Source of the DNA: Balanoglossus misakiensis
Taxonomy: Eukaryota > Animalia > Hemichordata
Direction: 5' to 3'
Length of the DNA stretch: 64,000 nt
Assembly: GCA_040954595.2 (NCBI GenBank)
Contig: CM082589.2
Coordinates: 6,941,186-7,005,185, forward strand
The position numbers and the translations under genes were made by a program. The stretch's first letter is position 1. Each line of letters begins with the position of its first letter. This document shows, in pieces, positions 28,505 through 64,000 of the stretch. Under the pieces are notes generated by a model. The model had not been told where the DNA came from, ran no database searches, and saw only the letters and a list, made by a program, of their open reading frames with translations.

Positions 28505-29145
28505 TATGATGTTTAGTCGAGTCACGCAGCTTTGGTACTGGCTAGACAATGACGCATACACTATGTACACAGTCACCTGGGTACAGTTGATAACGAAAAT
28601 CCTAGAACAGGGTGACCGTTATCAGTATACCATAATCAATACACTCATATTATCATTCTGTACATGTATCCTGACCTCAATAACACTAACACACAAACTT
28701 AATTTCAGGCTTATGTACCAAATTGATTTTTAACAACCAGTCCCTCCGTTACACTGGCAATTTTGACATGAGGTATTTGAAAATGTGACAATACCTTGGA
28801 CTCACTAGTGGTGTCATGGGGTGTCAAACACATTTCATTTTATGTACACAAGAAATAAAGATGATGTTTGTGTGGATGGGAGCCCTCTATAGGCTAGTAC
28901 CTGAGCAATAAAAGGTGATTCAAGTGTTGTTTGCAATAAAATACTGAGAACAGGTTGACCTGACCTGGCACTGCCAATAACCGCATATCACTTTAAAATC
29001 TTGTATCCACAGAAATATCCAAACAAACAGCTCTGCAGGGTGTGAAACTAAAGACCACTGGACAATTTTATTGCAATTCCTATGATTTTGGTCTGGTAAA
29101 ATTAACATGTTTTTTTTTTCAGCCACAAGAGTTTCTAAGGACTTG

Positions 29146-33596: not shown

Positions 33597-35699
33597 TATG
33601 ATGTTTAGTCGAGTCACGCAGCTTTGGTACTGGCCAGACAATGACACATACACTCTGTACACAGTCACCTGAGTGTAGATCATAAATAAATTCCTAGAAC
33701 AGGGTGACCTTTCTTAGCGGGCATTTGCGTTGCTAAGTCACACAGTGCTGATAAATGATCAGATAATAGTACACAATAAAAGGTGATCAAGTGTTGTTTG
33801 CAATAAAATACTGAGAACAGGTTGACCTGACGTGGCACTGCCAATAACCGCATATCACTTTAAAATCTTGTATCCACAGAAATATCCAAACAAACAGCTC
33901 TGCAGGGTGTGAAACTAAAGACCACTGGACAATTTTATTGCAATTCCTATGATTTTGGCCCGGTAAAATTAACATGTTTTTTTTTTTTCAGACAGAAGAG
34001 TTTCTAAGGACTTGATTTTGTTTGCTCTCTTGCATATACATGTATACATTTATTTTTCTGGCTTGTGTAGAATTAGTTTTTTGTCAACCTCTGCTTCTGT
34101 GATTTCTCAAAATGGTGTCAAAGCCATGATGAATATTACATGCCCTTGATGAAAGCAAAATGGGTATTATACAGTAAATTTTGTTTTCATTTTTTTAAAC
34201 CCTAAAGGCCTAAACACAACCTTTCAATATCTTTTTTTACCTTTACCATGCATGTACTTGTCACTAAGGCCAGAAGAACATGTAATACATAGTATCCTTC
34301 CAGGATTGAAACAGAATATAAATTTGTTGATGTTATTTTACATAATCTTCTATCCACTGCAGTGAAGAACTCAAAGGTGACAAATTGTTTTGGGCTTGAA
34401 TCAAATTGAACAATTATTTTGACTCAAGTACTCAAGCTCACAGATATTTAATTTAACAACAAAGGAATTCATGTTTAACCTTTTTATTTCTATCACTCAA
34501 TTCTTGGAAATGGCCCATTACAGGTTACTTGATAATACAAATAAATGCACTGTTTAAACCTCATCAAAACAGAAAGACTTGTTTTCTATTTCAACATGTT
34601 CTGAGCACTTAATTGCCACTGCAGACACAAGTTTTCTGGGATAACTTTGGTCAGAATTTTAGCAGATTGTTTTTATAAGGTGCTGATTCTCACCTCTTTT
34701 ACTGTACAGATACACTCCACACACTTTGTCTACATCAAACAACTATTTATGAGAAGCAATCATAAACAACAGCTAACATGGAATAATTTGACAAAAGTTT
34801 ACAGCACATTTTCTTATGAAAGTTTAACATAGGTGTATTAACCTTTGGTTATCTGTACACAGGTCAGACACAGATCGGAATTCTGTGTACACAGACTCTG
34901 CTATTAAACTCAACATCAGCATGTAGTATTGTGCATGCAACTCTGAAATCAGAAAAGAAATTCTCCTGCCAATAAATAATCATGACGTATGATCAATTAT
35001 CATCACCTTCAAGTCAATCACAAATTGTCCTACAGACTATCAAGGGAAAATTGTATGAAAACCACTCACTCCTGGACAATAAAAACCTTGCACCCAGTTC
35101 ATATACATTTTAAATTTCAATGTTGAAGAAAAAAAGTGTGGGAAAAACTAAAGTCTGGAAAGATGTTAGAGACAACAACAGTCATTAACTCCCAGGACTA
35201 GTATTGGATGATTACTGTACCAATAAAATGATGCTCAAATGTTACCCAAGATGCAGTGGAAAATATTCTGATGCAAAGAAAAATACCATTCTTGTTTAAT
35301 ATACAGAGTGATTTGGTAAATATTTTTTAAAATCGGTCAATCTTCAATTGTGTTGACCAGGAATTAAAGAAAATAATATAAACACATCCTCCTTGGTGTC
35401 CAAATGAAAAATGAAAATATCCAAAGCTTTAAAAATTTCCAAACAGGTTCAACTGGTTCCTTTTTTTTTTTGCATTTGTCCATAAATCTATTTACATAAT
35501 GAGTCGAATTTGTATCAGTGTGTAGGACATACTTCAGCACAGTTATTTTCTTCAAGTTCCTCAATTTGGAGAGCCTTTATTTACCAGAACACTGATCCCA
35601 ATTGTTAAATGTCACTTTTAGTTTTACACACACCCACACACAAGTCTTTTGGCTGTGTTCCAGTCAATGCAATACATGCAAGTCTTGTTCTGTCTGTCA

Positions 35700-37964
35700 T
35701 TAAATACAGTGTCTTCCCAGAACGTACACTCTGATGCAGTGATTGTTTCTGTCAGCTACAAACAGCTTTGTGGGCACACAATCAGCTACAACCATTCCTG
35801 CTGGGTAATTCAGTCCATCTTCCTTTCTATCAACACGGGATATGAATCTTCCACTGAAGTCAAACTTCTGAATGCGATCACACAAATCAGTGACATACAC
35901 ATATCTGTCGGGGTCAAGACACACACCAGATGGACCCAACAGCTGACCATCCCCTTCCCCTAAGATTCCAAATTTGTACAGGAACTGATCATCTGCATTG
36001 AAGACCTGAACACGGTGATTCACACAGTCAGCTACAAACAACATTCCTTGGTTGTCCACCACCATTCTGTTTGGTCCTTTGAATTCGCCATTGTTGTCAC
36101 CATAGCTACCGAAAGACTTGATGTACTGACCATCCTGTGTGTACTTTCTGATACAGTGTCCTGTAGTCTTGTCTGTGCCATCTCCAAACTCTCCAACCCA
36201 GTCTGACACATAAACAGCGCCATCTAGAGGGCTAATACAGATACCTTTTGGATTCTTCAGTTCAGTTTGTCCAAAGCATTTGATTACATTTCCATCCTCA
36301 TCACTCACAACCAGTTGTTTGTTGTTCTTGTCTGTCATGAAGTACTTGTTATCGGCTGATACAGCTACATCAGATGGAAGGAACTTCTTCTCAAACTTTG
36401 TAAAGGCCAACGATTTCTTCCACTTCCCATCCATGCCAATAACTTCTATTCTGTTGTTATTAAAGTCAGCTACAACCAAATCTCCGTTTCTGTTGATGGC
36501 CAAACTGTAAGGAGTGTTGAACTCTCCTTTACCACTGCCTATCTTTCCCAGTGTTTTCACCAATCCTTTGATGACATCAATTTCAAACGGTGATCCAGGT
36601 ATTTTCTGATCTCCTATCACTATGGTAACTTGATATTTGCCCTCCATCTGTGAGTGAATGGTCACAGTGTGTGTGCCATCTCCGTTGTCAATCACATCCC
36701 GAACTTCCTGGTATCCATTTGGCTTTGTGATTGTCACTTTCACTTCTTGTCTTGGAATGACTGTTTTCCCGGATTTATCCTTGGTTGTGATCACTACATC
36801 AACAGATTCACCTTTCAGGAGACTCTTCGGAATGTTGTCGACTGTACACTCTGAGATGCAAACATCAGACTTCACCAATCCAAGATTGCCATCTTTGGTA
36901 ACATTATCAGATGGCACAAACTCTACCACCTCACATGTTATGTCTGGTTTGGTATCCATAGCAACCAACTCTTCCATTTGACCCATTACAGCTGGACTGC
37001 TGGAAACCAGTTGGGATGGTACCCCATGATGCATCAGGGTTTCAACATAACTGCAAGTGGTGACAAGTTTTTCATATTTCAACTGGAGATCATCCATCTC
37101 TGCTTGGAGACCTTTGACCTCTTGGCTGCAATTCAAGTTCAACTTCTTCACAAGCTCTCTCTCCTCGTTCTCTATCTTGTCAATGAGGGCGTCCTTCTGT
37201 CTGGTGACTTTCTGTTTCTCTGCTGCACACTTTTCGGTCACATCATTACACGCAGCCATAACCACTGCTGTATTTTTGTCTACATCTTGAGCTTTCACTT
37301 TCAACTTCTCCACCATCTCAGACATCTTCTTACTGCATTCATCAGCAACAACTTGAAGGTATTGATGGGTGTGGTCAGGAATTCGATGATCGATTATGGT
37401 ACACTCACTACAGATTGGAATCTGACAAGTTGTACAGTAGTATTTGACCTCATTTTGGGGATGATCTTTGCAGTATAAAGCCTTTTTTAAAACTGCTCTC
37501 CGACTCATATCTTTCTTGTATTCTTCTACGGTCAGTATTTCGTGTGTTGGAGCACGATTCAACTTCTTGTGAATTTCTTCAAGGCAGACATCACAGTAAT
37601 ACTGGTGACAATCTTCACAGAACACTGCAGCCTCAACTTCTCCACAAGATTCACACTTACTTGATTGTTGCATGCTGGCTGCTTCTTTTCTACTCTCCAC
37701 AGTTTGCAAGAGTGAATTCATGAAGAAACTGTTGGTGAGTTTGGACACTCTGCCACCAGGAAGTTGAACTGGACTCTGACAAGTAGGGCAGTGCAGCCGG
37801 CCAGTTTTTGCCACCAGTTTTTCCAGACAGGGAAGACAGAAGGAATGATAACAGGGTAGAATTTTGGGATTCTTGAACTGTTCCAGACAGACAACACAGG
37901 ACAAGAAATCGCCACCGATTTCATCCAGAATCTCGTCAGGTGTTTTCAGTTTAGAGGCCGCCAT
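35700..37964 (-). CDS. TRIM-NHL E3 ligase copy 3, 754 aa (5-aa C-terminal extension GRHCI)
   Basis: Intact ORF with the same domains as copy 1. The TGA of the other copies is GGA here. Confidence 0.95.
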   Translation of the reverse strand: MAASKLKTPDEILDEIGGDFLSCVVCLEQFKNPKILPCYHSFCLPCLEKLVAKTGRLHCPTCQSPVQLPGGRVSKLTNSFFMNSLLQTVESRKEAASMQQSSKCESCGEVEAAVFCEDCHQYYCDVCLEEIHKKLNRAPTHEILTVEEYKKDMSRRAVLKKALYCKDHPQNEVKYYCTTCQIPICSECTIIDHRIPDHTHQYLQVVADECSKKMSEMVEKLKVKAQDVDKNTAVVMAACNDVTEKCAAEKQKVTRQKDALIDKIENEERELVKKLNLNCSQEVKGLQAEMDDLQLKYEKLVTTCSYVETLMHHGVPSQLVSSSPAVMGQMEELVAMDTKPDITCEVVEFVPSDNVTKDGNLGLVKSDVCISECTVDNIPKSLLKGESVDVVITTKDKSGKTVIPRQEVKVTITKPNGYQEVRDVIDNGDGTHTVTIHSQMEGKYQVTIVIGDQKIPGSPFEIDVIKGLVKTLGKIGSGKGEFNTPYSLAINRNGDLVVADFNNNRIEVIGMDGKWKKSLAFTKFEKKFLPSDVAVSADNKYFMTDKNNKQLVVSDEDGNVIKCFGQTELKNPKGICISPLDGAVYVSDWVGEFGDGTDKTTGHCIRKYTQDGQYIKSFGSYGDNNGEFKGPNRMVVDNQGMLFVADCVNHRVQVFNADDQFLYKFGILGEGDGQLLGPSGVCLDPDRYVYVTDLCDRIQKFDFSGRFISRVDRKEDGLNYPAGMVVADCVPTKLFVADRNNHCIRVYVLGRHCI

Positions 37965-39131
37965 TATGATGTTTAGTCGAGTCACGCAGCTTTTGGTACT
38001 GGCCAGACAATGACACGTACACTCTGTACACAGTCACCTGGGTACAGTTGATAACGAAAATCCTAGAACAGGGTGACCGTTATCAGTATACCATAATCAA
38101 TACACTCATATTATCATTCTGTACATGTATCCTGACCTCAATGACACTAACAACCAAACTCTGCATACTAGGACTGGGTAAATTTCAGGCTCGTGCACCA
38201 AATTGATTTTTAACAACCAGTCCCTCCGTTTATACACTGGCAATTTTGACATGAGGTATTTGAAAATGTGACAATACCTTGGACTAGTGGTGTCATGGGG
38301 TGTCAAACACAAACATTTCATTTTATGTACACAAGAAATAAAGATGATGTTTGTATGGATGGGAGCCCTCTATAGGCTAGTACCTGAGCAATAAAAGGTG
38401 ATCCAAGTGTTGTTGGCAATAAAATACTGAGAACAGGTTGACCTGACCTGGCACTGCCAATAACCGCATATCACTTTAAAATCTTGTATCCACAGAAATA
38501 TCCAAACAAACAGCTCTGCAGGGTGTGAAACTAAAGACCACTGGACAATTTTATTCCAATTTCTATGATTTTGGCCTGGTAAAATTAACATGTTTTTTTT
38601 TTCAGCCACAAGAGTTTCTAAGGACTTGATTTTGTTTGCTGTCTTGCATGTACATGTATGCATTTATTTTTCTGGCTTGTGTAGAATTAGTTTTTTGTCA
38701 ACCTCTGCTTCTGTGATTTCTCAAAATGGTGTCAAAGCCATAGTGAATATTACATGCCCTTGATGAAACCAAATGGGCATTATACAGTAAAGTTTTTTTT
38801 AATTTTTTTTTTAAAAACCTGAAGGCCTAAACACAACCTTTCAGTATCTTGTTTTACCTTTACCATGCATGTACTTGTCACTAAGGCCAGAAGAACATGT
38901 ATCCTTCCAGGATTGAAACAGAATCTAAACTTGTTAATGTTATTTTACATAATCTTCTATCCAGTGAAGAAGTCAAAGGTGACAATTTGTTTTGGGCTAG
39001 AATCAAATTGAACAACTATTTTGACTCAAGTACTCAAGCTCACAGATATTTAATTTAACAACAAAGGAATTCATGTTTAACTTTTTTATTTTTATCACTC
39101 AATACTTGGAAATGGCCCATTACAGGTTACT

Positions 39132-41777: not shown

Positions 41778-44027
41778 TCACAGAACGTACACTCTGATGC
41801 AGTGGTTTCCAAAGTCAGCTACAAACAGCTTTGTGGGCACACCATCAGCTACAACCATTCCTCTTGGGTAATTCAGTCCATCTTCCTTTCTATCAACACG
41901 GGATATGAATCTTCCACTGAAGTCAAACTTCTGAATGCGATCACACCAATCAGTGACATACACATATCTGTCGGGGTCAAGACACACACCAGATGGACAC
42001 CACAGCTGACCATCCCCTTTCCCAAAGATTCCAAATTTGTACAGGAACTGATCATCTGCATTGAATACCTGAACGCGGTCATTGTCACAGTCTGCTACAA
42101 ACAGTATTCCTTGGTTGTCCACCACCATCATGTATGGCCCTTTGAATTCGACATTGTTGTCACCATAGTTACCGAAAGACTTGATGTACTGACCATCCTG
42201 TGTGTACTTTCTGATACAGTGTCCTGCAGTCTTGTCTGTGTCATCTCCAAACTCTCCATCCCAGTCTGACACATAAACAGCGCCATCTAGAGGGCTAATA
42301 CAGATACCTCTTGGATACTTCAGTTCAGTTTGTCCAAAGAATTTGATTACATTCCCATCCTCATCACTGACAACCACTTGTTCATTGTTCAAATCTGTCA
42401 TGAAGTATCTGTTATCGGCTGATACAGCTACATCAAGTGGAAGGAACTTCTTCTCAAACTTTGTAAATGTCAACGATTTCTTCCACTTCCCATCCATGCC
42501 AATAACTTCTATTCTGTTGTTATTAAAGTCAGCTACAACCAAATCTCCGTTTTTACTGATGGCCAAACTCTCAGAAGTGTTGAACTCTCCTTTACCACTG
42601 CCTTTCTTTCCCAGTGTTTTCACCAATCCTTTAATGACATCAATTTCAAACGGTGATCCAGGTATTTTCTGATCTCCTATCACCATGGTAACTTGATATT
42701 TGCCCTCCATCTGTGTGTGAATGGTTGCAGTGTGTGTGCCGTCTCCGTTGTCAATCACATCCAGATTTTCCTGGTATCCATTTGGCTTTGTGATTGTCAC
42801 TTTCACTTCTTGTCTTGGGATGACTGTTTTCCCGGATTTATCCTTGGTTGTGATCACTACATCAACAGATTCACCTTTCAGGAGACTCTTCGGAATGTTG
42901 TCGACTGTACACTCTGAGATGCACACATCAGACTTCACCAATCCCAGATTTCCATCTTTTGTAACATTATCAGACGACACAAACTCTACCACCTCACATG
43001 TTATGTCTGGTTTGGTATCCATAGCAACCAACTCTTCCATTTGACCCATTACAGCTGGACTGCTGGAAACCAGTTGGGATGGTACCCCATGATGCATCAT
43101 GGTTTCAACATAACTGCAAGTGGTGACAAGTTTTTCATATTTCAACTGGAGATCATCCATCTCTGCTTGGAGACCTTTGACCTCTAGACTGCAATTCACG
43201 TTCAACTTCTTCACAAGCTCTCTCTCCTCGTTCTCTATCTTGTCAATGAGGGCGTCCTTCTGTCTGGTGACTTTCTGTTTCTCTGCTGCACACTTTTCGG
43301 TCACATCATTACACGCAGCCATAACCACTGCTGTATTTTTGTCTACATCTTGAGCTTTCACTTTCAACTTCTCCACCATCTCAGACATCTTCTTACTGCA
43401 TTCATCAGCAACAACTTGAAGGTATTGATGGGTGTGGTCAGGAATTCGATGATCGATTATGGTACACTCACTACAGATTGGAATCTGACAAGTTGTACAG
43501 TAATATTTGACCTCATTTTGGGGATGATCTTTGCAGTATAAAGCCTTTTTTAAAACTGCTCTCCGACCCATATCTTTCTTGTATTCTTCTACGGTCAGTA
43601 TTTCGTGTGTTGGAGCACGCTTCAACTTCTTGTGAATTTTTTCAAGGCAGACATCACAGTAATACTGGTGACAATCTTCACAGAACACTGCGGCCTCAAC
43701 TTCTCCACAAGATTCACACTTACTTGATTGTTGCATGCTGGCTGCTTCTTTTCTACTCTCCACAGTTTGCAAGAGTGAATTCATGAAGAAACTGTTGGTG
43801 AGTTTGGACACTCTGCCACCAGGAAGTTGAACTGGACTCTGACAAGTAGGGCAGTGCAGCCGACCAGTTTTTGCCACCAGTTTTTCCAGACAGGGAAGAC
43901 AGAAGGAATGATAACAGGGTAGAATTTTGGGATTCTTTAACTGTTCCAGACATACAACACAGGACAAGAAATCGTCACCGATTTCATCCAGAATCTCGTC
44001 AGATGTTTTCAGTTTAGAGGCCGCCAT
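41778..44027 (-). CDS. TRIM-NHL E3 ligase copy 4, 749 aa
   Basis: Intact ORF with the same domains as copy 1; cccag acceptor 72 nt upstream of the ATG. Confidence 0.95.
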   Translation of the reverse strand: MAASKLKTSDEILDEIGDDFLSCVVCLEQLKNPKILPCYHSFCLPCLEKLVAKTGRLHCPTCQSPVQLPGGRVSKLTNSFFMNSLLQTVESRKEAASMQQSSKCESCGEVEAAVFCEDCHQYYCDVCLEKIHKKLKRAPTHEILTVEEYKKDMGRRAVLKKALYCKDHPQNEVKYYCTTCQIPICSECTIIDHRIPDHTHQYLQVVADECSKKMSEMVEKLKVKAQDVDKNTAVVMAACNDVTEKCAAEKQKVTRQKDALIDKIENEERELVKKLNVNCSLEVKGLQAEMDDLQLKYEKLVTTCSYVETMMHHGVPSQLVSSSPAVMGQMEELVAMDTKPDITCEVVEFVSSDNVTKDGNLGLVKSDVCISECTVDNIPKSLLKGESVDVVITTKDKSGKTVIPRQEVKVTITKPNGYQENLDVIDNGDGTHTATIHTQMEGKYQVTMVIGDQKIPGSPFEIDVIKGLVKTLGKKGSGKGEFNTSESLAISKNGDLVVADFNNNRIEVIGMDGKWKKSLTFTKFEKKFLPLDVAVSADNRYFMTDLNNEQVVVSDEDGNVIKFFGQTELKYPRGICISPLDGAVYVSDWDGEFGDDTDKTAGHCIRKYTQDGQYIKSFGNYGDNNVEFKGPYMMVVDNQGILFVADCDNDRVQVFNADDQFLYKFGIFGKGDGQLWCPSGVCLDPDRYVYVTDWCDRIQKFDFSGRFISRVDRKEDGLNYPRGMVVADGVPTKLFVADFGNHCIRVYVL

Positions 44028-46319
44028 TATGATGTTTAGTCGAGTCACGCAGCTTTGGTACTGGCCAGACAATGACGCATACACTATGTACACAGTCACC
44101 TGGGTACAGTTGATAACGAAAATCCTAGAACAGGGTGACCGGCGTTATCAGTATACGATAATCAATATACTCATATATCATTCTGTACATGTATCCTGAC
44201 CTCAATGACACTAACAACCAAACTCCGCACATTAGGACTGGGTGCAAACTTCATTTTAAGTTCGCGTACCAAAATGTGATTTTTACAATGTAACAACCAG
44301 TCCTCTCACAACATGTCTTTTACCGTTTTTACCATTGGACTAGCGGTGTCATGGGTGTATGTAAAACACATACCGGTAGATGTCATTTTCTGTATACAAG
44401 AAATATCTGAAAGATGATGTTTGTATGGATGGGAGCCCTCTATAGGCTAGTATTTGAGCAAAAATGACCCTCAATAAGAAACAAAATCAGTCTTACATGC
44501 GACAGAAATTCAATAACTAGTTCACACTCTGTAAAAATATTCCAGATATCCAGAAATTTAAAAAAAATATGTGGATTCTTGCATGGAAAAAAACCATTAC
44601 ACTGTGGTGTCTCAGGGATAGCTAATTACTCGAGAGGACTATTACTTCAAAAAGTATGACATCAATCGCCGGCTGATGATGTCATAAGTGTAGATTGCGT
44701 TGAATCGAACATTTCCAAACGTGACGTCATCACTGATTGTTGATGTCATAGATGTGGGTTACTGGTTGTGTCTGGCGGATTTCGGTCAATCTTGTATTGT
44801 CAATTCTTGATTGCTGACACAACCAACGCACAGTATCAAGATACACTTTGGTGGGTGGGTGGGCTAAAGTATAGGTGAAAAGACTGGAAAATGTGACATC
44901 ATCACCAACTCCAGTGATGTCATAGAATAGATATCTGCAGGGTAATGTATTTTTTATAGTATTGATGATACTTAAAAATCTTGGAAATGACACTGACCTG
45001 CTGAAAAGCTAGTGTCTGTTTCCTGTGTTTTCTGTGGACAATGTTAGGTTTTGAAAAGGTTACAGTGGTCCACCATGGATGATTATGATGAGACTTGCCA
45101 AATTTTTTGAATGCCAACATCTAGATGAAACACTGAGTTTCTGCTTTTTCAATTGTCATATGTTCTTTCAAATATACAGGTACATAATAGCAGATACATG
45201 TACCTTCTATTGTAGAGCACCGTTACCAATGGCAGTACCCATTACGTCAACTCAAAGGCTATTTCTCTTATTTATTGCATTTCATGTAATTTTAATCCAG
45301 TTTCTGATTGTATCTACTATATCTACTCAGAGATATTGGCAATGTTATCCGGATGACTTTCATGTAATATGGGAAAATATTAACTTTCATTTAAATTAAA
45401 AACTGAAGACGCAGCAAAAAATTACACATTTCCCCATATAACAAAGATGGATTGACAATGTAACAGTATGTTTGTATTAGGGCACAATTAGGGGAGGGGG
45501 AGGGGAGCCTCAAACAGCATTGCACAAAACTGAACTGAATAGAAAGTGAGAGTGTGTGTGTGTGATTAGTGTAAAGGCTTTTTACTGGGAAATAGGACAA
45601 GGACTTTCTGACAAAGGACGTATTTAACATTGCAAAACATGATAGAATGTTAACACACTAATTACTTATATCAGCTACAAAATAATAATAACAGGACAAT
45701 TACTTAAATTAATATCAAAAGGACCGCATTAGCATGATAATTACTTGTATATTTATGCAATTCAGTCACAGTTCTGACAGGAATTCCTGGGAGAACACCG
45801 AAGGTCTGTAGTGTGATGTATCCATTGGAAACAACAAAGGAACATCTGAAGGAGAAAGATTGGGCAATTTGCAACACCTTCTAAAATGGTTTGGACTGTA
45901 TATAGCATTGAGGAGTATCTTTTTGTTCTGAGGAAAACAATGCAAAATAGAACAACTACGACCAATATGGTTGAAACTGGATGAGTAATAATAGTCAGAT
46001 GATGACTTGCGATTTCTGGTAAAACTATTATTAGTGTTACAGTATATGTTCATGTATGTTGATTTTAGTGACTGTGTCATCATTCAAATCTCAGTTTCCA
46101 ACTGGGTTGACACTAAGTTAACTCACGACTAGACTGGGTTAGCACTGGGCTAGCCCAGTTAGCACCTCACACTGTTGAAAATGCCAGCACAATTGTAACA
46201 CTGGGTTAGCTCAGGGTTAGCTAAATGGAATCCAGTGACATCAGTATTGTCAGGTACTGGTGTTGGAGTCCAATATAGACCACAGCTCAATAATAGATGA
46301 TTTTACACTCATATAAAGC

Positions 46320-51907: not shown

Positions 51908-53392
51908 ATGGCAGATGGGAAGGGGTCCCCTGAGGATCCTTTCAAGCAACTTGAGAATGACTTGTTTAAGTTTGAACTACCGGAGCGCAGGCTGTTCTCA
52001 GAGTCACACAGAGAGTATCAAGTCCCTGCTGTATACACAAGCGATGACAGGTGGGGCAGGACTTCGCAGTTCATTTTCGAGGACTGCACGAGCATCCTCA
52101 AGTCTCTGACGGATAAGACGTACTCGCTGACCGTCAAGTGCAAAACCCTGCCGTCGATTCCGGAGTTTATCCGGAGGGACAGGCGGGCGGCCAGGGTGAC
52201 GCAGCTCTTCCTGGCGGTCAACCGGATCAAGGAGATACCCGACGGCATGGGGGCGTTGGTCCAGCTCCGGAACTGCAGCCTGGACCGCAACAAGCTGAGG
52301 TCGCTCAAGAGCGAGTTCGGACTGCTGACTTCCATAGAGAATCTGGACATCGGTAACAATCAGTTCAAGATGGTGCCGAAGGAAATCTTCATGTTGAAAT
52401 CCTTGAGGGTTCTTCGTCTCTCCGTTAACGAAATCGAAGAGTTGCCCACCGGCTTTGCCCAACTCAAGCAGCTGGAGAATCTCCGGATTGGTTCAAATCG
52501 ACTGGAGCGTCTACCGGAAGACTTCGGCGAATGCCACAGTTTGAAGTACTTGAAACTAGCCAGTAATCGCTTCAGGGAGTTCCCGAATGAGATCTTGAAG
52601 TTGCCCAATTTGGAGCAGCTCATGATATCCACCAATAAAATACAGGTGATACCGATGGAGCTTTTCGATAATCGAAAGTTGCAGATGTTTCACGCGGAGG
52701 GGAACCCTCTGCAGCAACCTCCGCTGGCCGTCGTCAGCAAAGGACTCGGCAATATTCGCGAGTACTGGCAGGCGTACAAGAAAGGCGACATCAGAGACGA
52801 CCGTCTACGGGTCTTGTTTCTGGGCGCCACGGGAGCCGGGAAGACGACTCTGTGCCACGCCCTCGTCCGGGGTCCGACGGCCGACGACCCGGAGAGGACG
52901 GTCGGGATAGAGCAGCATCAGTACGAGCTGCGCGACGTGAAGATGACGCTGTGGGACTTCGCCGGGCAGGAACTGTACTACAACACGCACCACGTGTTCA
53001 TCACGTCCGGCGCTCTCGTCATCCTCGTCGTCAACCTGGAGGAGTACAATCGCGACAACTGCAACAACAACGGCAAGAACGTGACAAGTAGTTACGACAC
53101 ACTGGTCGGGATGTGGATCGACCACATCGCCATGCAAGTCCCAAACGCCGTCATTCTGGTCGTGGGCACCCACATGGACAAAGTGGACGATTCTAAACAA
53201 CGGATTGAAGACATCCTGGAAAAAATTCAAAAACATCGGGACACACAAAGAGATAATATGAAGATCAGAATCACACATCTGGAAGAAAGAATTGGTATAT
53301 TGGATAAGGACACAGAGGAAGGTGACCACCAACTTATTCTCATACAAAAGCAGATTGACAACCTGACCAGAATGGCAGAACAAGATCTACAG
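51908..53392 (+). CDS. MFHAS1-like ROCO protein, coding exon 1 (LRRs + ROC GTPase)
   Basis: About 8 LxxLxLxxNxL repeats with a GNPL..PP cap; G1 GATGAGKTT, G2 ERTVGI, G3 WDFAGQ, G4 GTHMD. Acceptor tttctttacag ends at 51874; donor CAG|gtgaat; 1485 nt, phase 0. Confidence 0.92.
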
Positions 53393-53778
53393 GTGAATTA
53401 TTTGTAATATTTTTCAACTGAACAGAACAAAGATGGTGAAAAGTGGTCATTTCTGTCCATCGATGTATGTGTTCCATGTTCATTTCATGGCTGGCTGGGA
53501 ATTCTTTCGCTTTGTCAATGGTGGAGGGCGCCCTCAAGTGGCAAACTTCAGAACATTTCAGATCTAGTACAGACCAGACCCTCACATCACAGTGTCATTG
53601 GAACAGAAACAAAAGGCACCAATGTTCACTCTTTGTACATTCTTGGTAATCTTTCTGCACCAGCCAAACTATCACTGTTTTGCCAGGAAAATAAGTAAGT
53701 TTGTCAGTCAGTTGATGAAATGTGCTTGATACTGGCTTTTAATATTGGCCAACTCTTAGATTTATGTTCTGTTTCCAG

Positions 53779-53986
53779 ATTCAGTTTAAAAGTCCCGTAC
53801 TGGTATGCTCAAAGGAACCACACACAGAAGGTCTCCAGAAGTTCAAAGACACGGTGGTCAGTTTGGCGCTCAACGAAACACTTTTCAAAGACCGAGGCCA
53901 AAATAGACCAAGTTCTTGGAAAGCCACGGAGAGAGTCATCGTGGAAGAACGCAAACCCACAGCAGGTTCTGAGGAAAGCAAGACAG
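53779..53986 (+). CDS. ROCO coding exon 2 (ROC end, COR start)
   Basis: gtttccag acceptor, G|gtaagt donor, 208 nt. IQFKSPVLVCSK...RPSSWKATE. Confidence 0.88.
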
Positions 53987-54400
53987 GTAAGTACAGAGCA
54001 GACCATAAGTGTCCAACATTGGTCAGCTCTTGGCTAACCCAATGCCAACCCAGGTTGGCAAATTTAGCAACTCATTGTCACGTCTTATCAGCATAAAAAA
54101 ATACATAATCAAAAGCAGAGGAGACACCAGGTTACATAATTAGCTGTAGGTATAGTGACAAACTAGCAGACCCATTTTTCGTCTGCTGGGTCAGAGTGAA
54201 AAACTAACCAGCCAGTCCTGTTATTAGCTTGCTAGCCTGTGATTCACTTTGGTTTACCCATTTGTCATCCCTGGAACTGACTGCATCATTGGTGTTGTGT
54301 TGTGTTTGTGATGTGTTGTGTTGTGTTGTGTTCAGTTGTGTCATGTTCTGCTTTGCTGTGTTCACACTCTCTCTCTCTCTCATATCCCCTCCTTGGACAG

Positions 54401-55903
54401 GCATGTGGAATATCCAAGACCTGGTGGCCCGAGTGATGGAAAAAGTACCGGCCATGGAGACTCCGGAACAAGTCTACCCGGTTCTCAAGTACCTGCACAG
54501 TCTTGGGGAGGTGGTTTGGTTCGACGAGGTGGAAGACGTCAAGGAGTGCGTCTTCATCAACCCGGCCGTCTTGATCGACGTCTTCAAGATGGTCATCAAC
54601 GACAAATTGGACAGGACCCTGGACGAGAAGAACTGGCGGGAGATCAAACTCTGCGGCATCACCAAAATACAACTGAAACTCGACCGTCAGAAGTACAAAG
54701 ACGTGGGGCTGATCAGCCACAAGCTTCTGTACATGCTGTGGAGGAAGCTACCGGCCAAGGAGAAGGAAGTGGCCTTCCTGGTGAAGGTTCTGGAACAGTT
54801 TGATCTGTGCTACACAGCAGGGGACATTGGAGTGCACTCGCTGAATGCAGATGCACCTGTTTTTTCGCCCAGCGTCCATACCACCGTCCCAACTAGTGAA
54901 GACATCACACGCAGCCCTTCCGCGGGTGATTTCACTGATCTGGCAGTAGCAGACGAGATGCCGATATCCCCAGTCAGTGACGTCACGCAACCACTGTTCC
55001 AAATGGACTCTCCAGAAGGTCAATACCAGTCAAGTCATCCGTACAGTCAAGTGCTGTATCCGTACCCCGGGCAGGCCTACCCGGCCCCCTTTCATCATCA
55101 TGGGATGTCGCCGCCAGCTGTATACTCAACGTCACCTGGGCCACATGACCAGTTTTATTATCCAAACTACCAGGCACATCCCCAGTATATGTTTGCCAGT
55201 GTCCCAGTTGTACCCACAAATGGATTTCCTAGCCCGCAGCAGTACACGAATCCAGTGCTGCTCCAACAGCAATATCCAAGTCAACAGCTCCCTATCTACC
55301 AAGAACCTCAACACCACCACCACCAACAACAACAACAACATCTACAACAACAACATCTACAACAACAACAACAACAACAGCAGCAGCAGAGCATGGGTGG
55401 AATTCTTAACCCCATGCAAAGCCCACCCCGAGAAGTATTTGTGGGCAGCCCCCAAATGCAAAGCACACCGTCAGTGCCACGAAGTCAACCCAGAGTTTTG
55501 ACGTTGTCCGACGCGAGGTCTGCCGATGAAAGTGATGGAAGCGCGGCCTCCTCTCATGCACAGCACGAAAAGAGACTATCACCACGGAGACCCAGGCGTG
55601 AGAAGACGAAGCTGTACTCCCTCTTCCCCTGCTACCTGCCGGATTCCAGTCAGGCACAGCCGGAGGAGAATCCCCCGAGCTCCGGAGACGACCACCACCG
55701 GATCAGGAACAAAGTGGAACTGTTCCCGGTCATTCCGTGCGGCTTCTTCGAGCGGTTCCAAGTCTGCTGCCACAAGGAAGAGTTGAAGTTCGCCGTCACC
55801 CACATCTGGAAGCACGGGATAAGGCTGACGGCCCAAGGAGTGAACGCTCGGATTCGGAGAGAGGATAACGAGATGCTGATCATGGAGACAAGAAGTGAGA
55901 AAA
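54401..55903 (+). CDS. ROCO coding exon 3 (COR with a long Q/P/Y/S-rich insertion)
   Basis: (CT)n tract then cag acceptor. COR motifs LKYLHSLGEVVWF, VFINP, LEQFDLCY, FPCYLP, IPCGFFERF, HIWKHG. The A|gtaggt donor restores phase with the next exon. Confidence 0.88.
55324..55389 (+). repeat. Coding (CAA/CAG)n polyglutamine tract
   Basis: QQQQQHLQQQHLQQQQQQQQQQ. Confidence 0.9.
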
Positions 55904-56388
55904 GTAGGTGTTTCCCCCATAGGTTTTAACCCTCTCTGCGCCTCCATGCGGTACAGCCCTGTTTGTCTGACTATGGTTGGACCGATACACTATGTTGGAG
56001 GGGGGGGGGGAGCAGTGTTTCATCTAGACAGGGCAATCAGGCAATTCACCCTCTGCTGGCATGTTGGCTCGTCCTGAACGTGGCAATTGGTCAAAGGTGA
56101 CCAGCGCCACGTGAAATGATTTGCCGGAGTGGTGGTGCCATCTTGTATGAAACACTGTTTGTGATTGTGTACAAGCTTCTGTCAACTGCGACAATGTTCC
56201 TGTAATATGACAGTAACATCTAGTGAACTAATACATGTAGTAACCAATATACATCTGTGTCTCTTGCCTGTCTTGGTGTCAAATCAGTTGTGACTAAAAA
56301 CTGTCAACATCTGTATTCAGCTACAGCAGTAGGTATCACATAACCAGTATTTGATTTTCTCACATTTGATGTTGTCTCCTTTTTCCAG

Positions 56389-56578
56389 CGAGTGTCAGTC
56401 TTGGCAACATGTGGTCTGTGATTCTGAAAATCAACGGTTTGATAAACAAGCTGTTGCAACGATGGCCTGGTGTGCGTTCTGACATCTACACAGTGTGTCC
56501 AGTATGTCTAGAGAAAGGCATCGAAGATCCCTTTCTGTTTATCTTGAACTTGCCATTTGAAAAGGAGGCCATTATTCA
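56389..56578 (+). CDS. ROCO coding exon 4 (COR C-terminal part)
   Basis: ttttccag acceptor, CA|gtaagt donor, 190 nt. ...NKLLQRWPGVRSDIYTVCPVCLEKG..., matching the MFHAS1-type LL.EWPGL.....C..C motif. Not in the ORF track. Confidence 0.88.
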
Positions 56579-56822
56579 GTAAGTACATTGTACTTTTAGT
56601 TGTCAGTACCGAAAAAAAGTCCAACATTCAGAAAACTTTGGTGCATAATAAACAAAAGGATTTCAATATTATTCAATAGAGGGCGCAAAGAAGAATTTAC
56701 CTGCCAAGTTTGAATTGGCAAACTCTTGTACCTGTTGTTGACATACAGATTGCCTTGTGGTAAAATAAATGTAAAAGCTGATATTCTTACAATACTCACT
56801 ATAAGCATTGTCATTGCTACAG

Positions 56823-56908
56823 GTATAGCAAGTATCCCGAGCAATGTACTGGAAGTGGTCACTGCGGTCAAATGATAGACTACGAACTAGTCCACCCCAT
56901 TAGCCAAG
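56823..56908 (+). CDS. ROCO coding exon 5
   Basis: ctacag acceptor, G|gtgagt donor, 86 nt, phase 2 to 1. (Q)YSKYPEQCTGSGHCGQMIDYELVHPISQ. Confidence 0.78.
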
Positions 56909-57293
56909 GTGAGTGTCCTCAGTGGATAACAGAACACCTGTCACCCTCTGACGTGTGGTCTTGTCAAATTGTAGTGGGGTTTATATTTACACATTGAACA
57001 GGTAAAATTTGTTAAAAAAGCAATAAAATCTCAAATGTCACACCACAGCCAACTTTGGTAGTTCAGTCATTGACAATGAGAATCAAATAAATCAAAATTA
57101 AATATGGTTGCCTAGGTCACCTAAATATACCTGTACATCTTTACCCAGAAATTTTGTTTTCTTTTGTTCTATATATATGTTAGAATACCAGTGTTCAGAA
57201 TGCAGTAATTTTCTCTGAATTGTGTGCAACGTTTGGTGAGGAATGTAGAACTATAGAAATGATTTCTGTGTGTGTGATTGTTTTATTTTGCAG

Positions 57294-57415
57294 TGGAAAA
57301 CGAAAAACGTGGTGCTATACAGATTAACAACTACTATTTCATCAACAACTGTGAGAATATACAGACTGGCAACGACAGCAGTATGTCCATTGGTACACCA
57401 GAAAAGTCTGTGTAA
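57294..57415 (+). CDS. ROCO last coding exon, with a RHIM-like motif
   Basis: ttattttgcag acceptor, phase 1. (V)ENEKRGAIQINNYYFINNCENIQTGNDSSMSIGTPEKSV*. Total spliced CDS is 3594 nt. Confidence 0.72.
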
Positions 57416-58354: not shown

Positions 58355-60118
58355 TACGCCACAGAAATACAAGTAACCACAGTCTTGTAGAGATATTTAT
58401 TTTTTATGTCATTTAATATGATAGAATTTTCAGTATACATTGTGATGTCTTCTTCATACACAGTACTAAATTAAAACTTATTCTAATATATTTCTTTTAA
58501 AAAGGTTGAGCTAAGTACAAATCAAATTTTTTCATGCACAGAAACCCTTAAACCCATCACTACCAAATTTTGGTAATTTTTTTTCACAAATCTGGTTATT
58601 TTTGTCATTTTTTCCCCTCGCACGACGTGCTTGATAGAACATGGTGGAATGTTGGACTAGTGAGGAGGGTTGTGTTTTTGAATACATCAACTGTTACCAT
58701 GGTTACCTGCAGACAACCCAAACTGAACAGGAGACACACACGGGACAAGGTACAACTGATCTACATCAAGTGGCAACGGTCGCAAAAAACAGCGCACTCC
58801 CCATGATGAGAATACAACCTGTATGCCTGTGCACAAAAACTTGTTTCTAAAATGAAAATGAATGACTATGTCAAAATAATCTACCGGGAAACTACACATT
58901 TTAGCAAATCGCGTAGACAACGATGAAGAATCTTGTTCTTTATGGCTACCAATGTGACAACAATGAAACCTCCAAAGCATCTGTGAAAGACGGGTGCAAA
59001 ATTCAATGTGATTGACACAACTGAAACAATGTCAGTAGACAGTACAGATACCAATCTCAAATTTCATAGTTTTTTTGCTTTATATTTTGACATCTGAGGG
59101 TCACTTCGTCTGTCCTAATAGGAAAGTAATTTTCAGATATTGAAAGTCAGCTTTATGACGACCATCATATGGTAAGCAGACAACAAATATCACATCTTTT
59201 TTTTCAGATATAAAGTCGATTGAAGAGAGTTGCCGCCTAATGGAGACCAGTTGTAAACAAAGTTATACAGAAATCGTACAACAAAACACATCAGAGGCAA
59301 AACTCGCAGTCGTAAATCTCTGTGGACTTATTGAGTTGATATTTGAAAAGTAGTGGTACTGTTCAGTTAGTGAAAACCTAAAATACCCACAGTGCAGCTT
59401 CGGGTGTTACTATTCTTGAATTAATGAGTCTTGCACTTGCAGGCTTTCCACCACAGGAAATCCAAGATAGGTCTTCCAACTGCTAAATTACGCCACGATA
59501 ATTTCAAACATGCGAAACAATGTCAATACTGCCAGCAAATCTTATATCACCATATGCAAAATTTTAAGACCAATTGGCAGTCATGTGAGTTGGTAAAATG
59601 AGAGCTTATTATACATAGGCAGAGTTTCGCGCCTGAGATTTAGCCGAGAAATTTTTCATGCGGGGAAAAAAATCAGCTCTATATTTCTATCGAGGTTTGA
59701 TATTAATTAAAGAAAGAGCATCATGATGTACTGAGCTTCTAAGATTTCACATCCTGCTAGCAATGCACGGTGTTTCACGGATTTCATCGACCATCTGCAA
59801 TTCAAGACAGCTAGTTAACTGAGGCTGAGATGTACATGCTTCCTACAACCCCCATTTTCACAATGCCAAGTTCCACGCTCACCACTGAAACAACTGGGTT
59901 AATCCAACGTCTGGTGGTAAAACAGGTGAAAGCTCCCACCAGACTTATGTATGCATTTGGCAGGAAAATCCATAGTCCTCAGATTTTTACAGATATCTTA
60001 CACGATTCTCACTATGTACAACAGAGGGTGCACCAGGACTGAATATCAGTTCATAGAAGCATCTGAATGTTGCAGCGCCCTCCTGTGTTCTGTGTGTGTG
60101 TCTACAACAGCAGCAACT

Positions 60119-60180
60119 TCACGTTTTTGGCTCCTTCGCTCTTCGTCTCTTCTGCGGCGGCGGGAGTGGGTCACAAATAT
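60119..60180 (-). CDS. Last coding exon of a large acidic low-complexity protein (basic NLS-like tail)
   Basis: ttctctccttgcag acceptor, phase 1 matching the donor at 60631. (D)ICDPLPPPQKRRRAKEPKT*. Confidence 0.72.
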
Positions 60181-60630
60181 CTGCAAGGAGAGAAAACGAA
60201 AAAGAAGATGTCAATTGGTCATCTCTTCAGAGTCAAGGTCTTGACATATTTTTAGTACACTTTTCCAGCCATTTTGTCTGGGTATCAACTGCAGTTTCCT
60301 GTTCAACTCCATGTAGCATAATACCGAGTCTTCAACCCTTTTTCTGCCAGGATTGTTATGCACCACCTTGCTTAGTAGTTAAAATGCATTATTGACCCTT
60401 TTTTCCACTTTAACCTGTTTTAAATATTTTGGCATGGCTCACATACAGAATTTGACGAACTTGGACATAGCCTGGAGTTTACCCCTCCCCCCCCCCCCTC
60501 TCCATATGAGCCACCCATATTTGGCAGATTAACAGGCCTGGGTGCTGGAAGTTTTAACCCACCTGTAAATCAAACCAGTTGCATCTGATTCAGCAGGATA
60601 AGGGTTAACCTGTTTATATTATAATCTTAC

Positions 60631-63600
60631 CTCCTCCACTTGATCTTGTAGTTCGCTTCCTTGGAGGCGATGCCGGTGCCGATATTTCCCTCTGACCACG
60701 CCCCCTCCGTGCGGGAGACCCCCTCCCGCCTTCACTGGGAGACCGCCTCCCCCCGCGTCTGCCACGCCCATAACCTCGTCGCACCGGCGTTTCGAATTTC
60801 ACCGTGAACTCCTCCGTGCTCTCCACTTTGTCTTTTTCCTCGTCGCAGTCCGCGCTCGCGGGTTTCTTGCCGTCGCCGCCCTCCGCGCTCGCGTTGTCTT
60901 TCTTCTCTTTCCCGGCAACCGTGCCTTCCTCTTGCTGTTCTTTGCTCTTGTCGCAATCTTCGGCTTTCTGGTCTGCTTTGACGCACTCTTCACCCTTCGG
61001 TTCAACGCCCGGTTCCGTACACACCGCGGCTTTGCTCTCAGCCTCCTTAGTTCCGCTTGCGTTATTGCTCGTTGTAGTACTGATACTTGACGCTTGCTCG
61101 CCCGACGCCTGTTCCTGTGTGGGCGCTTCCTTGTCCTCCGTGATCGCGACCGGCACGTTACTCTCACTCTCACTCGCACCGACAGCTTCCGAACTCACTC
61201 GGAGAGATTTCGCACACGGACCTTCCGTGTCGCCCTCCTCATGTTTCCTCTTAGCGCTTTCCTGTTGACCTTTAACCTCAGCATTATCCGCGGTCCGCTC
61301 TGATATCTTGTCCGAATCTCTCTGTTCTGTTTCTTTACTACTTTCAACAGAGCTACCACACGGTCCAGATGCTACAGTTTCACTGTCTTTTACTGTCTTA
61401 GCATCTGAATTACTGTCCTCGACACTCGGATTAGGCTCTTGAGTTTCCAAAGGCGAAGATGAAATCTCCTTTTTCTCTTGATCATCTGCTGTTTGTTCAG
61501 CTGTATGTGATGCTGTAGTAGTAGTCACTGCTGTAACAGCATCTTCATCTTTCGTAGCTTGCTTTTCTGTATCATCTGTGACTACCGCCTCCTGCCTTCC
61601 ATCTGTATTTTCCTTTTTATCACAAATTGCATCGCTCTCTTCCTGGTCTTTGAGTTCAGTGTTATCTGTTGCACTTTCAGGCTGGGCGACATCGGCCTTG
61701 TCGTTCTCATTACTGTCTCTTTCGGGGGCTGCCTCTGCGGCAGCGCCCTCATCAGTTCCAGCACTCTGCTGGCCGACTGCATCATTCACAGGCGTGGAGG
61801 CAATTGGACTGATCTCTGAAGGTTCCTCAATAGTCACTTTGGATAGACCCTTGTCTTGTCCTGTTTTCTCCGTTACACAATCACTAGTACTTTCACTGCT
61901 GCCAGCTTGTGGCTGACTCTGATTTGAAACATCAAGGCCTTCTTTTTCAGCTTCTTCCGGCTGTTCCTTCAATAGCTGCCCACCCTCTGGTTTTCCAGAC
62001 TCTGGTTCCGGAGCGGCGTCGACATTTGGCGCATCGCCGTCGTTTTGCTGGCTGTCTTTCGCGGTGGAATCTTTAGGACTCGGTGCAGACGCACCGTCTG
62101 CGCTTTCGGAGTCCTTCCCACTCTCGCTTTTCTCTCGGGATTTCTCCGCGGCCATTTCCCGGTCCAGCATGCTGAACTTGATGTGGGCCGTTTCCACAGT
62201 CCGGATGATGGCCTTGAGTTCCGGCATCATTTCCCCCTTCTCTCCGGCCTTCGCCTGATCCGGCTTCGGTTCCGCGACGTTCTTGGCGACGCTCTTTTCC
62301 GGATCCGAGTTCCTCTTCTCGTCTTCCACCTCCTTGATCATCTGCACTAAGAGATCGCTGCACTTCGACTGCATGTTTTCCGTTTTCCCAGACTCTTGCT
62401 CTTGCTCCGCCATGTTCTCAAGCAAACGTGAAGGCACAGTTGGTGGTGACTCCCTTTTCTCGCTGGCAGCGTCACAACCGCCATCTTGGATCGCAGCTCC
62501 TTCCTCAGTCTGCTCGGCAACCGACGCCGTATCCTCCCGCCCTTCGACACCCTCCGAGCCGACAACCTTTTCTGGCTGTTTCTCTTCTACAACAGTCGGG
62601 GAACTCCTCGCAGGTTCCTGAGACGCGACGTCTCCCGTGTCTTTATCTTCTCTCTCATCCGTTTCCACGGCAACAGCATCGGCAGAACCGGAGGAGCCTC
62701 CGTCCTCTTCCAAACTTACTGCAATGGCCGACTCCAGCCCTTCCAACTCTGTCTCTGATTTTGAATTTTCTGCGGCGACCGGACTGATCTTACTGGAGTC
62801 TGCAGATTTCTCACTTGCATTGTCTTCAAGTTTTGTCTCCACAGTTTCCGTCACACTGTCAATCTCTTTGACTTCACCAGTCGCGTCCACATTTCCATCA
62901 GGCACTTTCTCTTTCTGTAAAACTTCAGTGTGCTTCGCATCAGTTCCTGATGAACTAGCCACATCTTGTTTATCTGTTGTTTCACTTTCCATTGGTTTCT
63001 CAGCCTCTTTTTCAACACTGGTTACCGTTGACGACGCGTCTTTTTCGGCTGCCGTTTCTTCAGAATTCTCACTTGGTCCACTTTTTACATTGCTCATTGC
63101 CTTGTCATCTTCGTCCTTGCTTAGCTCCATGGCAACGATTTCATCAATTCTACTACCATAACTGGCATCTTCTGGTTTAGCGGTTGGCTCACTCTCATAA
63201 ACTTCCTTAACACTTTCCCCGTCATCTTTGGTGTCTGTGTGTATTTCGGTTTGTATGGTATCTTCTGTTTTTGTCTCCAACTCTTTGTCAGCAGAGCCAG
63301 CATCTGGGAGACTTTCCTTTACCTCCTCCTTGCTTATCTGTGCCTCTTGCTTGGGGCTATCAGCGTTAGGAACAAGGTCTTCAGCAACGCTGCTCACTGG
63401 AGCTACGTCTTTTGATTGAATTGTTTCTTTTGTTACTTCCTCTAACGGCTGGGCTTGGTCTTGATCTATCTTCTGCTCGCATGGGTCCTCCTCAGCTGAG
63501 ACATTCTCTCCTTTTTCTTGTGGCGCCCCCTTTTCTTGTGGCGCCTCAGGTTGGGGAGTGTGAGCTTGTGTGTGTTCTGATTCACTCGGCGGTCGTGTCG

Positions 63601-64000
63601 GTGACTTCTGTACGTCGGGCACACCCGGTGAATGCCCCACATTGGGTAACGGGGGTGACTGCCCCACCTCGGGCAAGGGTGGGGACTGGTGACCGATCTG
63701 GGATGTGGGAGGTGGTGACTCTCCTGCTTGGGTGAACGGCGGCGACTGTCTCATTCGCGGTAGTGGCGGCGAGTGCCCAGCTGTGGGCAATGTGGGCGAC
63801 TGTCCTGTACAGGGTGGCGACGACCGTCCGTCGTTGGATAGTTGCGATGTCTTTCCCGAATTATTCAGCTGTGGGGATAACCGTCCTGAGTGGGGTGGTG
63901 ACGGGGGTGACTGCCCTGTGTGTCGCAGCGGAGATCGCTTCCTCGTGGGGGGTGACTGTCCGGGCATGGGCAGCTGGGGTGCCTGTCCAAGTATGGGCAG
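60631..64000 (-). CDS. Very large exon (>3.3 kb, open past the right edge) of an E/S/D/K-rich, probably disordered nuclear protein; identity not recognisable
   Basis: >1120 open codons; G|gtaag donor at 60631; GQSPP repeats at the visible start; RG-rich basic segment (GRGRRGGRRSP..RRGRG..PPRKR) at the end. Confidence 0.85.

Follow-up and report, generated by a model that had tools for sequence, protein, structure and literature searches.

Does the ROCO gene at this locus end in a short amyloid-type signalling peptide of its own? The first-pass annotation of the window, by which we mean the whole stretch of 64,000 nucleotides that was analysed, had proposed that an LRR-ROC-COR protein carries a RHIM-like motif on a separate last exon. 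The gene can be assembled on the plus strand from six GT-AG exons with phases 0, 1, 1, 2 and 1 into one stop-free frame of 1197 amino acids (Table 1). Exons 4 and 5 align with the end of COR-B in homologues. The donor at 56908 is a perfect MAG/GTRAGT site, one of only three on the plus strand of the 64-kb window, and another of the three is the exon 2 donor of the same gene. When the YAG acceptors between 56912 and 57800 are ranked by pyrimidine count, with ties split by T count, the acceptor at 57293 comes out on top (12 pyrimidines, 12 T). Because the last exon is entered in phase 1, a single reading frame is possible for it, and this is the frame that had been proposed. With GT-AG borders, matching phases, a perfect donor and the top-ranked acceptor, the exon holds up as originally described and encodes the 19-residue peptide reported for it. 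On these sequence grounds, the 56908/57294 junction and the last exon are very probably real.

Table 1. Positions of the ROCO gene, its parts and its neighbours in the window.
Feature	Position	Strand	Content
ROCO gene	51908-57415	+	
Coding exon 1	51908-53392	+	N-terminal cap, LRRs, ROC GTPase, helical ROC insert
Coding exon 2	53779-53986	+	ROC end, COR start; GT-AG, phases 0/1, perfect donor
Coding exon 3	54401-55903	+	COR-A, PAM2-like loop, low-complexity insert, COR-B start
PAM2-like motif, aa 712-721	54841-54870	+	Predicted to be bound by the MLLE domain of poly(A)-binding protein
Q/P/S-rich insert, 244 aa	54871-55602	+	PolyQ run; Q41, P34, S29; predicted disordered
Coding exon 4	56389-56578	+	COR-B (W-x-G, first CxxC); alignable with homologues from amphioxus and vertebrates
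Coding exon 5	56823-56908	+	Second CxxC-like pair, COR end; perfect donor at 56908
Predicted last coding exon (phase 1)	57294-57415	+	Encodes 40-aa tail; junction predicted from sequence
RHIM-like motif, 19 residues	57335-57391	+	
Core IQTG	57359-57370	+	Non-canonical
TRIM-NHL gene	26255-28618	-	Single ORF
TRIM-NHL gene	31039-33713	-	Single ORF; may be rearranged or broken
TRIM-NHL gene	35700-38033	-	Single ORF
TRIM-NHL gene	41778-44144	-	Single ORF
Open frames	59800-64000	-	GC-rich, purine-biased, charged low-complexity; likely exons of a neighbouring opposite-strand gene

The window also contains a recent expansion of four tandem TRIM-NHL genes that adjoins the ROCO gene. The copies are 92-94% identical, and RING, B-box, filamin and NHL domains are found in the one copy that was scanned. 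In the second copy, the coding sequence is divided between two overlapping frames and a stretch of NHL sequence is repeated.

The LRR-ROC-COR architecture named in the first-pass annotation is borne out by Pfam, which places LRR_8 (77 bits) and Roc (63.7 bits) above their cut-offs on exon 1 and COR-A (41.1 bits, cut-off 35.3) on exon 3; COR-B scores 20.4 bits on the same exon, under its cut-off of 27. The GTPase motifs in exon 1 are intact (G1 GATGAGKTT, G2, G3 WDFAG and G4 GTHxD). N-terminal LRRs followed by Roc and then COR, with no kinase, place the protein in ROCO group 1. The closest named protein is P0001 of Saccoglossus kowalevskii, which is 59% identical over exon 1 and is the sister of the window protein in the 18-row tree described below (100/99), and this points to an acorn worm as the likely source of the gene; the P0001 model ends ahead of the region that matches the last three exons. 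The AlphaFold (AF2) model of the amphioxus homologue P0003 (mean pLDDT 71) matches Roco/LRRK structures, the best match being the C. tepidum Roco 6hlu. A RHIM is expected to be unstructured and to lie outside folded domains. The tail in question follows COR and is probably disordered, to judge from the homologue P0003, whose entire post-COR tail has pLDDT <50 in the model and is predicted to be disordered.

The match of the peptide to known RHIMs is modest in itself. The core tetrad is published as (V/I)-Q-(V/I/L/C)-G (within PMC9444067), and IQTG falls outside this pattern. Both the non-canonical core and the absence of the downstream Asn had been noted previously and are confirmed by the encoded peptide, and the RIP1 and RIP3 RHIMs that had been used for comparison match those aligned in the supplement of PMC4262963. 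From the six vertebrate RIP1/RIP3 rows of that supplement, we took every column with three or fewer residue types, 15 in all, and the window motif matches 9 of them. RHIM positions that it lacks are Asn +5, Gly -2 and Ser/Thr -3, and the alternating hydrophobic pattern is kept on both sides of the core. The G-phi-Q-phi-G signature common to RHIM/PP/BASS3 (within bioRxiv 10.1101/2020.01.06.895854) is only partly present, as no Gly precedes the core. Among 53,518 six-frame sites of the window, taken from peptides of at least 15 aa, the motif alone reaches 9/15, and there is no second such site. The chance per site is 7.8e-6, so that about 0.4 sites with 9/15 are expected in a scan of this size. 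When the 40-aa tail is shuffled with its composition kept, 19 of 40,000 shuffles reach its score and 40 of 40,000 its column count. A hand-picked version with 11 columns gave 9/11 (1 in 100,000 shuffles), but it omitted two conserved columns which the motif fails and so flattered the match; we therefore rely on the 15-column figure.

Pfam support, which had been suggested as a check on the exon, was not obtained: RHIM (PF12721) gives no match to the last exon at E up to 10. The model is insensitive here: among five homologue tails only that of P0285 is matched, below threshold (15 bits, cut-off 20; E 0.018) and with RHIM as the only family found. The window motif is missed by HMMs built from amphioxus QVG/QIG tails alone, where it scores -1.7 and -2.5 and is equalled or exceeded by 2862 and 3842 of 5000 shuffles. 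Once QTG tails are added, the motif scores 7.2 bits (15/5000 shuffles), but it is then second in the window. A PDB sequence search at E up to 10 returns zero matches for the exon, for a 6-row tail profile and for the P0285 tail, and can be judged insensitive because even the canonical-looking P0285 tail finds nothing. For the exon, the ESM Atlas yields three clusters of short proteins, all unnamed, at 0.86-0.90 and with low recognition, and it yields nothing for the P0285 tail, so that this comparison is uninformative.

A point against the RHIM reading comes from single-residue tetrad variants of human RIPK3, which differ in their NF-kB output. Two natural ones, VQSG and TQIG, do not activate NF-kB, although all the variants, these two included, still support ZBP1-dependent death; IQTG is not one of the variants named in the sections of PMC12119088 that describe them. 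If the peptide acts as a RHIM, its core Thr and its lack of the Asn point to one that is weaker or lineage-specific.

The position of such motifs directly after COR in related proteins is stronger evidence than the motif match. We compared 305 proteins (304 fetched and the window model), which include 53 ROCOs with a recognisable COR end; the search with representative sequences yielded mostly LRR proteins and about 30 useful ROCOs. In the 53 ROCOs, post-COR sequence (2,877 residues) contains the strict tetrad 4 times, compared with a single occurrence in the other 60,235 residues, and a widened tetrad occurs 15 times after COR versus once elsewhere, in 14 of these proteins. These counts are not independent, because the tetrad was widened after the data had been seen and three motif-bearing tails were the seeds of the search that retrieved P0282-P0286. 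At least 9/15 columns are matched at 9 of 615,828 sites in all 305 proteins, and five of the nine are post-COR ROCO tails.

RHIM-like tails are found in five lineages: the window, three amphioxus ROCO lineages and one unnamed protein (P0267, IQTG). The amphioxus members of the window's own group (P0003, P0121-P0124) have CQVG or CQMG followed by Asn, and the ANK-LRR-ROC-COR proteins (P0276, P0284-P0286) have VQVG, VQIG or IQIG. The third amphioxus lineage (P0242, P0282, P0283) has IQTG or VQTG, as in the window. Three Branchiostoma species retain these QTG cores, and this points to a variant under selection. When pairwise scores are computed with each lineage left out in turn, 0-1 of 3000 shuffles score as high for the five tails, and 0 of 3000 do so for the window tail against the other ROCO tails, against references that were themselves chosen by the widened tetrad. 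The motif lies 26 aa past the end of COR in the window and about 35 aa past it in the amphioxus relatives. Taken at the sequence level, the window tail and the other RHIM-like ROCO tails probably share a common origin.

The slot after COR is occupied by other modules in other relatives. P0126-P0128 have a Pfam death domain there, P0123 has the CQVG motif and then a death domain, and the Branchiostoma proteins P0282 and P0283 have the QTG-type motif followed by a SAM domain. By eye, we take the corresponding region of P0169 to be caspase-like and that of P0136 and its relatives to be ZU5-like. The RHIM-like peptide is thus likely to be an output module in the part that the death domain plays in paralogues. 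Amphioxus RHIMs are described as sitting at positions usual for death-fold domains (within PMC4262963), and the pattern seen in the predicted ROCO tails matches this remark. In a separate observation, Watersipora P0133-P0135 have a ROC-COR-like region fused to a C-terminal caspase-family domain (PF00656).

The vertebrate relatives of the gene end differently. The bird model P0009 reads on as G-E directly past COR, as the window protein would, which hints at a shared phase-1 intron ahead of the tail exon. Some homologue models (P0002, P0020) stop right past COR. We considered whether the tails of bird, toad, fish and unnamed vertebrate-type proteins are degenerate RHIMs and found this unsupported, with 456-2706 of 3000 shuffles scoring as high. 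The RHIM-like motif is consequently not essential to the window's group, given that its vertebrate members have tails without significant similarity to it. In birds, the slot of P0005, P0010 and P0013 is taken by a C-terminal tail that is conserved, beta-rich and composed of Y/T/S/G, likewise without significant RHIM similarity.

The first-pass annotation had compared the gene with MFHAS1, and this comparator proves to be misplaced. We built ROC-COR trees from 52, 26 and 18 selected rows, the last with the PAM2-like 10-mer removed. The window protein groups with that of Saccoglossus, with some of the amphioxus proteins and with a set from birds, gecko, toad and fish that is labelled 'MFHAS1-like'. 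The unrooted split of this group from true fish MFHAS1 is stable in all three trees, and a 100/99 branch parts the window protein from MFHAS1 in the 18-row tree. A single clade of vertebrate MFHAS1 and the vertebrate members of the window's group is rejected (p-AU 4.6e-5). Orthology of the window gene to MFHAS1 is therefore ruled out by these trees. In the 26-row tree the long LRRK2 branch attaches inside the PAM2 group, if weakly supported (49), which makes the position of the root and a strict monophyly of this group uncertain. The accompanying remark that vertebrate MFHAS1 lacks such a tail is correct: 16 of 17 MFHAS1-type fish and unnamed proteins (P0287-P0303) end without the motif about 10-14 aa past COR, and the remaining one, P0302, is a fused model. 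Four vertebrate Roco proteins only are listed in the relevant part of PMC6337361, and the window's group, with members in birds, reptiles, amphibians and fish, is a candidate fifth on the evidence of these sequences. No mammalian member occurs among the matches listed, which is weak evidence that mammals lost this ROCO.

A PAM2-like motif that the first-pass annotation missed is a second mark of the group. PAM2 is defined by a hydrophobic residue at position 3, Ala 7, Phe 10 and Pro 12 (within PMC2854688). The window protein has L3, A7, F10 and P12 at aa 712-721, and position 5 is A rather than P or V. The pattern L-[ND]-x-x-A-x-x-F-x-P closes COR-A in 28 of the best 75 of 112 ROC-COR matches; all 28 carriers belong to the window's group, and it occurs in none of the other 47. 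Every member of the group that covers the region has it, from acorn worm to birds (the window protein, P0001-P0003, P0005-P0020, P0121-P0125, P0137, P0138 and P0140). A looser pattern gives seven further scattered matches in other proteins. Pfam PAM2 (PF07145) does not match exon 3 of the window, and its matches in homologues are sub-threshold (13.3-17.6 bits, cut-off 20; P0016 17.5, P0137 17.6). The motif is coil with pLDDT 52-57 in the AF2 model of P0003. The Q/P/S-rich insert follows it directly, between COR-A and COR-B. Saccoglossus P0001 has a long P/Y/S-rich insert at the same place that looks dissimilar by eye, and the amphioxus and vertebrate members have merely a short loop there.

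The explanation that we narrowly favour, at somewhat better than even confidence, is a ROCO GTPase whose predicted last exon supplies a RHIM-like peptide, through which a sensor of immune type would be linked to signalling by amyloid. By analogy with Roco biochemistry, and as proposed for LRRK2, ROC-COR would cycle between monomer and dimer in dependence on GTP/GDP; this cycle would perhaps be triggered through the LRRs and would bring the disordered tails together. The clustered tails could then stack into a cross-beta seed, which would recruit a RHIM-bearing partner and lead to inflammation or cell-death signalling. Through the PAM2-like loop in COR, beside the polyQ-rich insert, the protein is predicted to be anchored to poly(A)-binding protein, and this might place it at mRNA granules. 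RHIM-bearing RIPK1 homologues are reported as not found in echinoderms and tunicates, and hemichordates are not named in that section of PMC12119088.

The same exon, with its RHIM-like ancestry, could instead encode a degenerate peptide or a beta-strand binding peptide that does not form amyloid, the output of the protein then lying elsewhere. The departures from the canonical tetrad, the upstream Gly and the downstream Asn would fit such a peptide, as would the failure of profiles of canonical amphioxus tails to find the motif and the vertebrate members whose tails are beta-rich and unrelated or missing altogether. The 9/15 RHIM columns that persist, with alternating hydrophobic residues flanking the core on both sides, and the conservation of QTG in P0242, P0282 and P0283 speak against this, and we regard it as unlikely, if still a serious contender. 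An intron 5 read-through (stop at 56997) or a different last exon, which would make the motif a product of chance, is far less probable than that. The junction is a prediction from sequence, the 64-kb six-frame scan is itself expected to yield about 0.4 such matches, and models P0002 and P0020 finish right past COR; yet a perfect donor falls exactly at the COR end, the acceptor is the top-ranked one, and the best RHIM-like site of the window lies near the amphioxus position.

Finally, the protein may be mainly a regulator of mRNA granules or turnover linked to poly(A)-binding protein, with the tail and the polyQ insert merely aiding condensation. The PAM2-like motif is present in all 28 covering members and lies in a loop that is exposed and of low confidence in the model, P0016 and P0137 have weak Pfam PAM2 matches, and RHIM-like tails occur in some members only. 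This leaves unexplained the RHIM-like tails of lineages without PAM2 (P0276, P0242, P0267), and every Pfam PAM2 match is below cut-off. We consider it improbable as the main function; it is compatible with a RHIM-like output, and the two are not mutually exclusive.

The protein resembles several known systems in part. It shares with the amphioxus RHIM proteins of PMC4262963, such as the RHIM-NACHT-repeat protein BF82280, a RHIM-like motif on a scaffold of NTPase and repeats in an invertebrate deuterostome; it differs in using a ROC-COR GTPase as the switch and in having the motif at the C-terminus. The words 'LRR', 'Roc' and 'GTPase' are absent from the main text of that paper, Figure 1 aside. 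Mammalian RHIMs (RIPK1, RIPK3, ZBP1, TRIF; PF12721) have the same I-Q-x-G with hydrophobic residues at -9, -7, +7 and +9, whereas the window motif has a Thr in the tetrad, lacks Gly -2, Asn +5 and a Pfam match, and sits on a GTPase rather than on a kinase or adaptor. Vertebrate MFHAS1/MASL1, a group-1 Roco in the part of PMC6337361 concerned, has the LRR-Roc-COR order without a kinase but neither the post-COR tail nor the PAM2-like loop. The prokaryotic AP-GTPase (Roc)-COR conflict proteins (within PMC8195603) likewise combine LRRs, GTPase and COR with an exchangeable C-terminal effector slot. The window gene differs from them in being animal and intron-containing and in having a short RHIM-like peptide as its putative effector, and such a peptide is not among the effectors named in the corresponding part of that paper. 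The PAM2-like motif has the L3-A7-F10-P12 of PAM2 proteins (Paip2, ataxin-2, eRF3, Tob; PF07145) in a loop predicted to be disordered, and it adjoins a polyQ-rich stretch; unlike in those proteins, it is inserted within the COR domain of a GTPase, and its Pfam matches are sub-threshold.

A full-text literature search, figures, most supplements and most subscription papers aside, gave no title or opening of an abstract that reports a RHIM on a ROCO protein, and 'Roco protein' with 'PAM2' gave 0 papers. The sections covered of PMC12261475, PMC9573974 and PMC4104024 contain no such ROCO-RHIM report. An animal ROCO that has a putative RHIM-like effector and belongs to a group marked by PAM2 and separate from MFHAS1 therefore appears to be new.

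A broader proposal is possible, though we hold it to be doubtful as a whole. ROCO GTPases might form a second class of intracellular immune receptors in invertebrate deuterostomes, in which RHIM-type amyloid tails and death, caspase, ZU5 and SAM modules replace one another freely on the terminal exon. The gene would also belong to a fifth lineage of vertebrate ROCOs, so far unrecognised, in which the COR loop is a binding site for poly(A)-binding protein. If this is true, the status of mRNA or of stress granules would couple to death or NF-kB signalling by amyloid. Most of the known receptors that signal through amyloid are kinases, adaptors, PGRPs and NACHT/NB-ARC NLRs. With a RHIM output on a Roc-COR GTPase, a new type of switch would join them, and QTG-type cores would widen the definition of the RHIM. 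To the four vertebrate ROCOs of PMC6337361, the PAM2-marked group would add another, masked until now by automatic 'MFHAS1-like' names. Such a protein would also offer a simple test of how the Roco monomer-dimer cycle leads to an output, a question that is still open for the LRRK2 family.
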